Source: Methanocella sp.
GTDB taxonomy: Archaea > Thermoproteota > Bathyarchaeia > Bathyarchaeales > Bathycorpusculaceae
Assembly: GCA_050261115.1 (NCBI GenBank)
Contig: JBLNCY010000018.1
Location: forward strand, 1-64,000
DNA length: 64,000 nucleotides
Direction of reading: 5' to 3'
Under the pieces are notes generated by a model. It saw only the letters and a program-made list of their open reading frames with translations, was not told where the DNA came from and did no database searches. Made by a program: the position numbers and the translations under genes. Below are positions 10,239 through 30,645 of this stretch, one piece after another (the first letter of the stretch is position 1; each line of letters opens with the position of its first letter).

Positions 10239-10706
10239 ATGCAAACAAATAACCCTGGTAAACAAAGAAAAATGCTCTTCAATGCTCCAGTTCACCTCCG
10301 CCACAAACAAATGGCGGCGCCACTCTCAAGTGAACTGGCTGCATCCAGAGGTGCTAAGACCCTGCCAGTCCGCAAAGGCGACACCGTTCGCATAATGCGC
10401 GGCGACAACAAGGGGTTTGAAGGAAAAGTTTCACGCGTCGACCACAAAGCATACCGAATATACATTGAAGGCTTAACACGCGAAAAAGTCGATGGCACAA
10501 ACATCTTCTTAGCAGTACATCCATCCAAAGTTCAAATTCGCAACCTTAACCTTGACGATAAATACCGCAAGGAAACAATTCTCGGCCGCAAAACCGCACC
10601 CGGGAAGAAAGGCACTGCAAAAGCAAAGTCAGAAAAAGCCAAAAAAACTCCAGCCAAGGCTAAAGAAGACGCGCAAAAAGCGCAAGCTGAAACGGAGGAG
10701 GAATAA
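10239..10706 (+). CDS. rpl24: 50S ribosomal protein uL24
   Basis: PGKQRK, KOW motif VRKGDTVRIMRG, HPSKV. Confidence 0.97.
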   Translation: MQTNNPGKQRKMLFNAPVHLRHKQMAAPLSSELAASRGAKTLPVRKGDTVRIMRGDNKGFEGKVSRVDHKAYRIYIEGLTREKVDGTNIFLAVHPSKVQIRNLNLDDKYRKETILGRKTAPGKKGTAKAKSEKAKKTPAKAKEDAQKAQAETEEE

Positions 10707-26419: not shown

Positions 26420-27748
26420 CTGGAAAACCCCGAAAAACTAACAAGTTATCAGCTGTACCGATTCAAGAAGCTCGATAGTCCTGCTTCCGCTATTGAATGG
26501 ATAGATTACAACTGGCAAATCAGAAACTCCATTAGAACCATAGAAGAATTCGAAAGTTTTATGGGCATAAAATTTTCAAAAAAAGAAAAGGCCCTGCTTG
26601 AAGCAACGATTAAAAAGTTCCCGTTAAGCATCACCCCATATTACGCTTCACTTATCGACAAAGAAAACCTCCACAATGATCCTGTCTTTAAACAGGCTTT
26701 TCCCAATCCAGCCGAGCTAGCGCTCTCTAAATGTGACATGGCTGATCCACTCCATGAAGAAGAGGACAGCCCTGTTAAAGGCTTAACCCACCGTTACCCT
26801 GACCGTGTCCTTTTTCTAATCAGTAACCGCTGTGCCATGTACTGTAGGCACTGTACAAGGAAACGAAAAGTCGGTGACTCCGAGCATATTCCTAGTCGAG
26901 AACAAATCGTCGCTGGTCTCAAATACATCCGACGTCACTCTGAAATCCGAGATGTGCTTCTAAGCGGAGGCGACGCACTTATGGTGCCAGACGATTATCT
27001 CGATTGGATATTAACTGAATTAAACAGGATTCCACATGTTGAGGTGGTGAGAATTGGCACTAGAACCCCAGTGGTTCTACCTTACCGGATAACTGATGAA
27101 CTTGTGGATATGCTAAAGCGGCATCACCCTTTATGGTTAAACACTCACTTCAATCACCCAAGAGAATTAACGCCTTCCGCCAAAGCAGCACTAAGAAAAC
27201 TAGCTGATGCGGGAATACCTCTTGGCAACCAATCGGTATTGCTTGCGGGCGTTAACGACTGCCCTCAAATCATGAAGAAACTCAACCAGAAACTAGTCCA
27301 GAGTCGAGTTCGCCCATACTACCTATTCCAGTGTGACCTATCAGAAGGCTTAACGCATTTCCGAACATCCGTAGGCAAAGGGGTGGAAATCATCGAGAGC
27401 CTGCGAGGCCACACTAGCGGCTTTGCGGTCCCCACATTTGTCATCGACGCTCCGGGCGGAGGCGGAAAAATCCCCATCATGCCCAACTATATCCTATCAT
27501 GGTCAACCCACAAAACGGTTCTGCGCAACTATGAAGGCGTAATCACCACCTACCAGGAGCCTGATACCTATCAGCCAGCAAAATGTGACCTGAAATGCCA
27601 CCGATGCCACCTCCAATTAGACGACGAGCACAAGACTCCAATCGGCGTCGAAAAACTATTGTCCGACAAAAACAAGACCCCCTCACTTGTGCCAAAAGGA
27701 ACCCTTCGACTGCAACGCCGCAGAAGCCACCCCGGGAAAAAACCATGA
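26420..27748 (+). CDS. ablA: Lysine 2,3-aminomutase (radical SAM, PLP); probable CTG start
   Basis: [41 protein letters not shown]; conserved W..Y.WQIRNSI lies upstream of the annotated ATG 26561. Confidence 0.9.
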
Positions 27749-28269
27749 CACAAAAACCACTCGCCCCCTCGGATTTAACCATCCGCAGAGTTAAGGTCAG
27801 TGACATCGGCCAAGTCTACAAGCTTCTTACGGCAAACCGGCCCTATGTGGGCTTAAACAGCCGCTACACCTATTTTTTGCTTGCGCGAGACTTCAGCGAC
27901 ACCTGCCTAGTCGCTTTGGACGGAGACCGTGTAGTTGCTTTCTCATCGGGGTATGTTCCCCCTAACAGGCCGGATACCTTTTTTAGCTGGGAAGTAGTGG
28001 TCGATGAGGCATATCGAGGCAACGGTTTACAGAAAAAGCTACTGCTTCAGCAGCTACGGATGACAAATGCAAAGTACTTGGAGGGAACCATAAATCCGTC
28101 TAATCATGTTTCAGAAAAGAATTTCCTCGACCTCGCGCGAATCCTAGAGACCAGTTGCGTTAGGAGTGTATTGTTTAGTGAGGCAGATTTTGGTAACGAT
28201 GGGCACGAGGCGGAGGTTCTTTTCCGGGTGGGGCCTATTGGTTTGGGTCCGCTTAAGAAAAAAATTTAG
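27745..28269 (+). CDS. GNAT acetyltransferase, EctA (diaminobutyrate acetyltransferase)-like
   Basis: [57 protein letters not shown]; ATGA overlap with the aminomutase. Confidence 0.8.
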
Positions 28270-29684: not shown

Positions 29685-29850
29685 AACATTCACCTCCCCA
29701 TAGTCAACATCTACTTGAGGATGGTTCATAAAATTATGTGGCTACATTAAAGTGGCAAGCATCTACGTCGATATATGGGGTTTATTGCGCTCATTATTGC
29801 ACCAGCACATGTTTATATCATGTGTGTGGGGTGCCTTTATAGGTGGTTTT

Positions 29851-29961
29851 TTGCATCATAATAATACGAAGAAAATTTTGACTGTAGCTGGCATTGGTAT
29901 CGCTGCAGCCGCCATAGCTGCTGGCATGTTTATGCACATCAAGAATAGAGCACATAAGTAA
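29851..29961 (+). CDS. 36-aa single-TM micro-protein
   Basis: AGGTGG SD then TTG; MHHNNTKKILTVAGIGIAAAAIAAGMFMHIKNRAHK; downstream T-tract. Confidence 0.55.
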   Translation: MHHNNTKKILTVAGIGIAAAAIAAGMFMHIKNRAHK

Positions 29962-30135
29962 GTTAAGAAACGCTGATTCGAAGTTTCCCTTTTTTCTGTA
30001 TTTGGTTTGGTTGAGTTGTCTTGGGAGGTTAGGGTTGTTTTATCGCTTTGTTACTTCAGATATGAACCAACATTGTTTTTTATGCTATTTTGAAAGATAA
30101 CCTTCTTGTGTGGAAAAGCGTGTATGGTGCCCGAC

Positions 30136-30240
30136 AGGTTGGGCGGGTTCGGCTGCTAAAGCTGAGGTGGCATGGGTCCCGATTTTTTGTGTCACTCAGC
30201 TTTTAGCACGGGGCTGGATCCGCTTAACTTCTCTTTTTTG
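30136..30240 (+). ncRNA. Candidate structured RNA: ~37-bp hairpin followed by a U-tract
   Basis: 30136-30173 pairs with 30189-30230; apart from small bulges every non-WC pair is G-U on the + strand. Confidence 0.6.
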
Positions 30241-30310
30241 GTAATGTTGTTGTAGTGTTACAATCACATTGTTATTTATGGTTAATTGTTGATATTTGTT
30301 ATTAGTGTAA

Positions 30311-30392
30311 AAGGTTAGCTTGAAGGCAAGTTAATGTTTCCCCTCTCTCTCTTCCTGATTCACGCTTGCCTTTAAGTTAACCTTCCTCTCTC
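30311..30392 (+). ncRNA. Candidate structured RNA: 20-bp stem with a CU-rich loop
   Basis: aaggttagcttgaaggcaag pairs with cttgcctttaagttaacctt (2 G-U). Confidence 0.55.
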
Positions 30393-30504
30393 GACCTTCT
30401 AAATTTTTAAGGTAGGATAAAATAAAAACCTGTTTACATTCTATCGCTAACCTGTCGAGCACCATAGCGCAGGTTTTTATTATTCATCTTAATTCAATTC
30501 GGGT

Positions 30505-30645
30505 ATGCCAACCTTTGAGTGCACAATCTGCGGCCGTAAAATTAGGTCAGAATTCGAGGTTTCCTGCACTGGCGACGTCAAAAGAAACGTGGAAAAGGCG
30601 CCCTGGTGCTGTAGCAAGGAAATGATAGAAACCATCGACGACTAA
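30505..30645 (+). CDS. 46-aa desulforedoxin-like CxxC...CC micro-protein (not in ORF track)
   Basis: MPTFECTICGRKIRSEFEVSCTGDVKRNVEKAPWCCSKEMIETIDD. Confidence 0.7.
   Translation: MPTFECTICGRKIRSEFEVSCTGDVKRNVEKAPWCCSKEMIETIDD

Follow-up and report, generated by a model that had tools for sequence, protein, structure and literature searches.

Which molecule, if any, is specified by the long, G-U-rich hairpin that lies in a non-coding part of the 64,000-nucleotide stretch of Bathyarchaeia DNA analysed here (the whole stretch is referred to below as the window)? The first-pass annotation, made from the letters of the DNA, had proposed a novel non-coding RNA on the + strand, and this proposal gained support from a fold significant on the + strand only, from the lack of any Rfam match, from covarying homologs and from a recurrent promoter block. 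We consider it highly probable that the hairpin belongs to a real structured-RNA gene family. The fuller reading that we prefer, in which the hairpin is the body of a small non-coding RNA gene of approx. 130 nt (approx. 30108-30240, + strand) from a multi-copy, genus-specific family that would act by a seed-plus-scaffold mechanism, is one for which we judge the case evenly balanced.

Fold, strand and covariation of the hairpin

As read from the sequence, positions 30136-30153 pair with positions 30213-30230 in 18 contiguous pairs, six of which are G-U or U-G, so that the uninterrupted outer stem described in the first-pass annotation was borne out base for base. A second helix, formed by 30154-30176 with 30186-30212, is interrupted by a 4-nt bulge (30208-30211); the inner arms that had been placed beyond the bulge are present at 30154-30173 and 30189-30208. 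RNAfold predicted 39 pairs in 30136-30230 (27 Watson-Crick and 12 G-U), with a hairpin loop of 9 nt (30177-30185) and with only the 4-nt bulge and the single bases G30167 and U30201 unpaired within the stem. The long stem claimed earlier thus stood, while its length had to be corrected from about 37 bp to about 39 pairs. The tract ctctttttt, reported to follow the hairpin, is found at 30231-30239.

The predicted fold energy of 30136-30230 was -51.0 kcal/mol on the + strand and -24.3 kcal/mol for the reverse complement (RNAfold). A comparison of the fold with that of shuffled sequences, which the first-pass annotation had suggested, was carried out over 141 nt and reached significance for the + strand only: none of 200 shuffles folded equally well on the + strand (z = -4.06), as compared to 20 of 200 on the - strand (z = -1.38; not significant). 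The stable structure is strand-specific.

No ORF had been noted over the hairpin, and this held only in part, as a mechanically called 44-aa ORF with a GTG start (30110-30244) overlaps it. Orthologs keep neither the start nor the frame of this ORF, and hairpin lengths differ by numbers of bases that are not multiples of three; it is therefore not a credible gene.

Covariation was assessed in an alignment of 87 model-aligned matches representing 69 distinct sequences; because the alignment was obtained by fitting related sequences to the model, the following statistics overstate the case. Standard pairs occupied 88.4% of the cells, as compared to at most 44.3% for slid partners, changes on both sides were seen in 21 of 33 pairs (186 cells), and none of 500 shuffles reached any of the five covariation measures. 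All 7 pairs of the middle helix and all 9 pairs of the apical helix covaried. The basal helix was mostly invariant, with G-U kept at fixed columns (e.g., in 66 of the 69 sequences at columns 26/138), and the 4-nt bulge was present in the consensus structure of the 87 matches. Among 2263 cells, G-U was found in 432 and A-C in 108, and the opposite strand could thus not form the helix. The search for homologs and for covariation among them, also put forward in the first-pass annotation, hence returned many homologs with compensatory changes, within the limits of a model-fitted alignment.

Mean pairwise identity among 62 copies was 0.87 in the basal 5' arm, 0.78 in the basal 3' arm, 0.45 in the apical part and 0.37 in the leaders; past the T-tract (beyond +13), it was 0.25-0.40. 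Judged from these alignments, conservation is confined to the region from the predicted promoter to the predicted terminator, with background levels outside. Overall, the sequence comparisons indicate that the structure is selected at the RNA level. The earlier claim of selection on an RNA structure, as opposed to a DNA palindrome, agrees with the excess of G-U over A-C cells and with the strand-specific fold; its stated counter-case, a decayed MITE, is very improbable, since the two arms differ at fixed G-U positions and the - strand fold is not significant.

Layout, distribution and expression of the predicted gene

The copies share a predicted layout, which is common to all of them and consists of a dyad with a BRE/TATA-like box, a leader, a G-U-rich bulged basal stem, a covarying apical stem and an oligo-T tract. 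In the window, the promoter block (30048-30083, + strand; recognized as a match to the family consensus) runs from an upstream dyad-like element, TTGTTAC...CAACA, into a putative BRE/TATA-like box, TTTTTTAT (30076-30083). The TATA-like stretch that had been pointed out at approx. 30076-90 is T-rich and falls within this block. The promoter consensus upstream of the copies is about TTGTTGyttCA..TTGTGACAACATTATTTTATAT, and its TATA half showed at least 10 matches out of 16 in 63 of 64 copies, in which its end lies 43-59 nt upstream of the hairpin. A match-count scan of the window's own genome found the best match to the promoter consensus at the window locus (24 of 27 scored positions; next best 21), and at the threshold used the predicted block is unique to this locus in that genome. 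Neither of the window's two tRNA genes has a promoter block of this kind.

In the A-type orthologs (see below), the sequence becomes conserved again at TTGTGTGG, 23-25 nt past the TATA box. Established promoter geometry places archaeal start sites at such a distance, and from these two points we infer a transcription start at approx. 30108-30110. The predicted transcript would begin with a 5' leader of subtype A (GUGUGGAAAAG..UGGUGCCCGAC; 30108-30135), continue with the 5' strand of the basal stem (30137-30160; RNAfold pairs, fixed G-U columns), the variable apical stem and loop (30161-30200, with a U6 run at 30183-30188; changes on both sides in 9 of 9 apical pairs) and the 3' strand of the basal stem including the bulge (30202-30229), and end at an oligo-T tract (30234-30239), the predicted terminator, all on the + strand.

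The leaders fall into four subtypes, with identities of 0.64-0.73 within subtypes as compared to 0.37 across all leaders. The window's copy is of type A; identity among the A leaders was 0.72 for 17 copies, all from different loci. As identity within subtypes exceeds that of the flanks (0.25-0.40), the leaders are likewise under selection. A mini-ORF in the leader (MVPD..LGG.GC) was rejected as a gene, because several A-type copies lack its start codon or have it displaced by 1 nt, and because the other subtypes do not contain the ORF. The loops are pyrimidine-rich, and the apical part contains a T-run of at least 4 bases in 52 of 60 copies and of at least 5 bases in 37 of 60. In 57 of 60 copies, the stem is followed within 22 nt by a T-run of at least 4 bases, which begins 4-6 nt after the stem in 53 of 60.

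BLAST in the window's own genome found the hairpin locus itself and no other full match; genomes of the same genus yielded full-length orthologs as well as many partial matches to the two arms. Nineteen copies were aligned, 17 of which (judged by eye) fold on their own into the same long hairpin despite differing apical sequences. A covariance model (R1; E ≤ 1e-3) matched 98 of 120 genomes of the window's genus, and 61 of 73 among the high-quality genomes, with 1-11 matches per positive genome. The own genome has four R1 matches, on contigs C18 (the window), C29 and C53 and, in divergent form, on C46; a 19-nt look-alike of the 5' arm on contig C6 was dismissed as a chance match, having neither a tRNA nor a matching second arm nearby. 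Across a sample of the order, R1 matched 7 of 12 genomes of the genus and gave one weak match in a sister genus, with no match in 115 genomes from the order's 11 other families. A rebuilt model (R2) gave two weak matches (approx. 26 bits) among single genomes from 39 other genera of the family; one of these (G162) has the same promoter-leader-hairpin-T-tract layout with a diverged stem, and the other (G136) is a short hairpin only. One (G098) of five good genus genomes that had no R1 match and were re-examined has a divergent relative scoring 28 bits.

The exact two-arm pattern matched 48 stretches among the genomes of 185,579 species. By title, these were 35 from Bathyarchaeia/Bathyarchaeota, 3 from Candidatus Bathycorpusculum, 7 labelled "uncultured archaeon", 2 labelled "Nitrososphaerota archaeon" and one 4.7-kb contig labelled Acidoferrum. 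The same pattern had no match among the IMG/VR viral contigs. On the strength of these searches, the family is found almost only in one genus of uncultured Bathyarchaeia. A literature search found no description of such RNAs in Bathyarchaeia, Bathyarchaeota or Bathycorpusculum, and we predict that they represent an undescribed family of archaeal small non-coding RNA genes.

The window was found in thirteen DNA runs, from compost, sludge, digesters, biofilm and soil, and six RNA libraries contain 13-23% of its words. Among the contigs of four RNA runs, a single one overlaps the hairpin, i.e., a 179-nt contig of run X17 that corresponds to 30023-30201 with no mismatches. It extends from a point upstream of the predicted TATA box into the hairpin; contigs show neither ends nor strand, and this one could represent DNA carry-over or read-through. 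Runs X14, X15 and X16 have no contig over the hairpin, such gaps not being evidence of silence; in X16, a contig piece covers 30326-30408 only, i.e., the region of a second hairpin (see below).

Known RNA classes and rival explanations

A scan of the whole window with Rfam 15 at gathering thresholds returned two tRNAs and nothing else, and the Rfam comparison proposed in the first-pass annotation thus assigned the hairpin to no family in that release. Seven chance-level matches were found in a permissive scan of 29900-30520; at the hairpin, MIR862 scored highest, with 17.6 bits as compared to its threshold of 100. The hairpin is neither SRP RNA nor RNase P RNA, as canonical versions of both are encoded elsewhere in the genome (on contig C16 with 149.4 bits, and on contig C46 with 190.1 bits, respectively). 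Box H/ACA guide RNAs are recognized by a large internal pocket for pseudouridylation, by a K-turn or K-loop and by an ACA box that directly follows the stem on its 3' side; the stem found here is interrupted only by the 4-nt bulge and two single unpaired bases, and its 3' tail consists of 4-6 variable nt followed by the T-run, with no conserved ACA. Box C/D sRNAs carry a C box (RUGAUGA) and a D box (CUGA) at their ends, and UGAUGA is absent both from the predicted transcript (30108-30240) and from the family consensus. A guide RNA of an RNA-guided nuclease (omega RNA, or of the crRNA/tracrRNA type) would lie beside a nuclease or transposase gene or in a repeat array; it was rejected, as no such family is present among the 25 commonest Pfam families found for 56 upstream and 61 downstream neighbours, although single cases could lie in rarer families. 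Sm-like proteins bind U-rich single-stranded sites, and U-runs occur here in the loop (52 of 60 copies) and in the tail (57 of 60), at the level of a motif only.

Neighbouring genes do not point to a partner. The commonest Pfam families beside the copies were histidine-kinase domains (7 of 61), L31e (6 of 61), eIF-6 (4 of 56) and Orc1/Cdc6 (4 of 56), so that no family exceeded 7 of 61; these recurrent families reflect orthologous positions of the copies and not a partner gene. Of 56 copies with an upstream neighbour, 36 have it on the opposite strand; the corresponding count for downstream neighbours is 36 of 62, and in 20 of the 51 copies flanked on both sides neither neighbour shares the strand of the RNA. 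The copies appear to behave as independent genes.

This arrangement bears on the possibility that the hairpin is a cis element of a neighbouring mRNA, either as terminator or 3' UTR hairpin of the gene before it or as 5' leader or riboswitch of the gene after it. With its trailing U-tract, the hairpin does resemble an intrinsic terminator, a small + strand ORF (29752-29961) ends 175 nt upstream in the window, and the X17 contig starts upstream of the predicted promoter. Against this stand the frequently opposed neighbours, the copies' own promoter block (63 of 64) and the lack of conservation, among orthologs, of the region upstream of the promoter; we regard a cis element as barely tenable, and an independent small RNA is what we infer from the comparison of copies. 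Scarcely better placed, and very improbable in our view, is an element that functions as DNA, such as a MITE-like mobile palindrome, a recombination site, or an origin or operator dyad. Such an element would account for a long inverted repeat with several dispersed copies per genome and for the occurrence of Orc1/Cdc6 among the upstream neighbours (4 of 56), and the outermost bases, GTTRRRY...RYYYAAC, recall the cores of integron attC sites. However, the fixed differences between the arms yield G-U on the + strand and A-C on the - strand (432 vs. 108 cells), where the fold does not differ significantly from that of shuffles (z -1.38), the apical stem shows compensatory substitutions, and the promoter block and T-tract flank the hairpin in one orientation. 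Copy numbers are also low, some positions are syntenic between species, and no copies occur on viral contigs. The attC cores themselves are ordered RYYYAAC ... GTTRRRY; in the window, the + strand reads GTTGGGC ... GCTTAAC and the - strand GTTAAGC ... GCCCAAC, i.e., the reverse of a real attC site, which was rejected on this account.

Two further explanations accept an RNA gene and differ over what its product does. The RNA could bind a protein and have no base-pairing role, acting as a decoy or as a structural subunit of an RNP, with the basal stem as functional site and the leader subtypes as a record of lineage history. The basal stem is indeed by far the most conserved part (0.87 and 0.78) and keeps its G-U pairs fixed (66 of 69 at columns 26/138), and targets of the leaders were not found in the own genome. 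On the other hand, leaders are conserved at 0.64-0.73 within subtypes across species while the flanks show 0.25-0.40, and no candidate gene for the protein adjoins the copies; we consider this explanation unlikely, but deserving of serious attention. The other explanation starts from the U5-6 run in the loop. Archaeal RNA polymerase stops at oligo-T, and the loop run would be expected to stop it, which sits awkwardly with a full-length hairpin. The gene might have two products: termination in the loop would release an RNA of approx. 75-80 nt with its 5' arm free or paired to the leader, and read-through would give a closed, inactive hairpin. The apical T-runs (at least 4 bases in 52 of 60 copies, at least 5 in 37 of 60) and the established behaviour of the polymerase agree with this, as do the leaders of types A and D, in which 7-8 nt are complementary to the beginning of the 5' arm (22 of 65 copies). 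This complement is, however, not general (the mean longest run was 5.6 as compared to 4.6 for shuffled sequences, with the C-type majority at chance), and we rejected it as a general switch, as it is limited to types A and D (at least 7 bp in 22 of 65 copies). Moreover, conservation is strong in the 3' arm and in the second T-tract, and covariation links the 3' arm to the 5' arm, which argues that the full hairpin is selected; we find two products rather improbable.

Proposed mechanism and comparison with known systems

Under the seed-plus-scaffold reading that we prefer, each copy would form its own transcription unit, with a promoter block, a single-stranded leader of 20-35 nt, the long hairpin and an oligo-U 3' end. 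In this scheme, the bulged basal stem, invariant and rich in G-U pairs, would join with the U-rich loop and tail to form a common scaffold that binds a protein and stabilises the RNA, an Sm-like protein being the obvious candidate for the binder. The subtype-specific leader, possibly together with the pyrimidine-rich loop, would confer specificity on each paralog through short base-pairing with other RNAs, making each copy a "seed plus scaffold" riboregulator like the bacterial sibling sRNAs. This mechanism in particular is offered tentatively, as a plausible suggestion that falls short of being probable. No partner protein was found among the genes encoded beside the copies. For the A and B leaders, approx. 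10-13 antisense matches were found in the own genome, as compared to 0-26 for shuffled queries (the leaders' own opposite strands aside).

Sibling sRNA families under one regulated promoter include Qrr1-5 of Vibrio and the CiaR-dependent csRNAs of Streptococcus. Like these, the family described here has several paralogous stand-alone genes per genome, a shared dyad-bearing promoter, an unpaired 5' portion and, at the end, a hairpin with a U tail; the number of matches (1-11 per genome; 4 in the own genome) and the occurrence of the promoter block (63 of 64 copies) are those of a family with a shared promoter. The shared promoter dyad suggests a shared regulator, by which the small RNA genes would probably be co-regulated. 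A shared single-stranded seed was not found, as leaders have an identity of 0.37 across subtypes and sites complementary to them were not above shuffled controls; what is conserved in all paralogs is a double-stranded stem, which sets the family apart from classical sibling sRNAs. Unlike the Qrr RNAs and csRNAs, the Bathyarchaeia family is archaeal, has a BRE/TATA promoter, shares a long double-stranded stem, shows four unrelated leader subtypes and has no sequence homology with them.

Other likenesses are with archaeal and with protein-bound RNAs. Methanosarcina mazei sRNA41, sRNA154 and sRNA162 are intergenic archaeal sRNAs of approx. 100-150 nt that form stem-loops and, in some cases, act at ribosome-binding sites. 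The predicted RNA is likewise intergenic and archaeal, of about 100-150 nt, with a stem-loop; it differs in having no sequence or Rfam match to them, in its uncultured host and in being multi-copy, with a fixed architecture and a hairpin of approx. 39 bp. Y RNAs (Ro-type) and Sm/Lsm-bound RNAs resemble it in their long conserved bulged stem, variable distal part and oligo-U 3' end, and several loops read (A/G)U5-6G, which resembles an Sm site as a motif only. Unlike Y RNA, it has no Rfam Y_RNA match, a simple closing loop and a 5' leader outside the stem.

A bolder version would see here a new class of riboregulator with dedicated machinery, i.e., a protein that reads the stem, a transcription factor that reads the dyad, four interchangeable leader heads and a loop oligo-U that chooses between an open (active) and a closed (inactive) form. 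We regard this as a long shot; if true, it would represent a natural guide-plus-scaffold system in which the same scaffold is sent to different RNA targets.

In sediments, soils, peat and digesters, Bathyarchaeia rank with the most abundant of the uncultured archaea; in the literature searched, we found nothing on RNA-based regulation in this group. The predicted family would represent a regulon-like set of small RNA genes with clear predictions for promoter, start and stop, which can be checked in existing metatranscriptomes and in enrichment cultures. It could join Rfam and would annotate otherwise blank intergenic regions in the genomes of more than 100 species, and its promoter dyad and conserved stem would offer starting points in the search for a transcription factor and an RNA-binding protein of a lineage that has no genetics.

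Neighbouring genes and a second hairpin

In the window, the neighbours are genes for lysine 2,3-aminomutase, a GNAT acetyltransferase, a family-2 glycosyltransferase and pyruvate phosphate dikinase. The aminomutase and acetyltransferase genes are adjacent (26561-28269, + strand), and we take them to be the methanogen pair for the osmolyte N-epsilon-acetyl-beta-lysine, which is unexpected in Bathyarchaeia. In another genome of the data set (G004, contig C4; locus L058), two identical RNA copies (approx. 1867-1996 on the - strand and 10250-10379 on the + strand) lie inverted approx. 8 kb apart with identical flanks. The intervening and adjacent genes are duplicated in part, and the whole has the appearance of a recent inverted segmental duplication.

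A 46-aa cysteine-rich, zinc-ribbon-like ORF (MPTFECTICGRK...; no Pfam match) is located at 30505-30645 (+ strand). It was found in 73 of 120 genus genomes and lies beside the A-type RNA in many species. It was rejected as partner of the RNA, being present in several genomes that lack the RNA (e.g., G008, G068 and G080) and not found, with the query used, in several that carry it (e.g., G041, G044 and G057); the ORF adjoins an RNA copy in many genomes but not in all, and co-occurrence is not clean. Just upstream of this ORF, 30418-30480 contains a conserved AT-rich box (ATAAAATAAAAAC.TGTTTAC..CGCTAAC) and a hairpin (AAAAACCUG...CAGGUUUUU), which may represent its promoter and leader.

Divergent relatives of the family on contig C46 of the own genome (4633-4768, + strand), in G098 (L161) and in G162 (L163) have covaried basal stems, GUUUGGCG.../...CGCCAAAC. 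The relatives on C46 and in G098 have CU-rich loops, as does a second conserved hairpin downstream of the window's copy, which hints at a wider superfamily joining both hairpin types.

This second hairpin (30311-30385, with a tail to approx. 30407) lies 51-73 nt downstream of the A-type copy and follows 11 of 18 A-type copies (strict motif). It has a stem of 17-21 bp that covaries between species, a nearly invariant CU-rich loop (GUUUCCCCUCUCUCUUCCUG), a CU-rich tail with a T-run after it and a TTATTTATGG box approx. 25 nt upstream. By these features, the second hairpin is a candidate for a small RNA gene in its own right, and its pyrimidine tracts could pair with purine-rich sequences.
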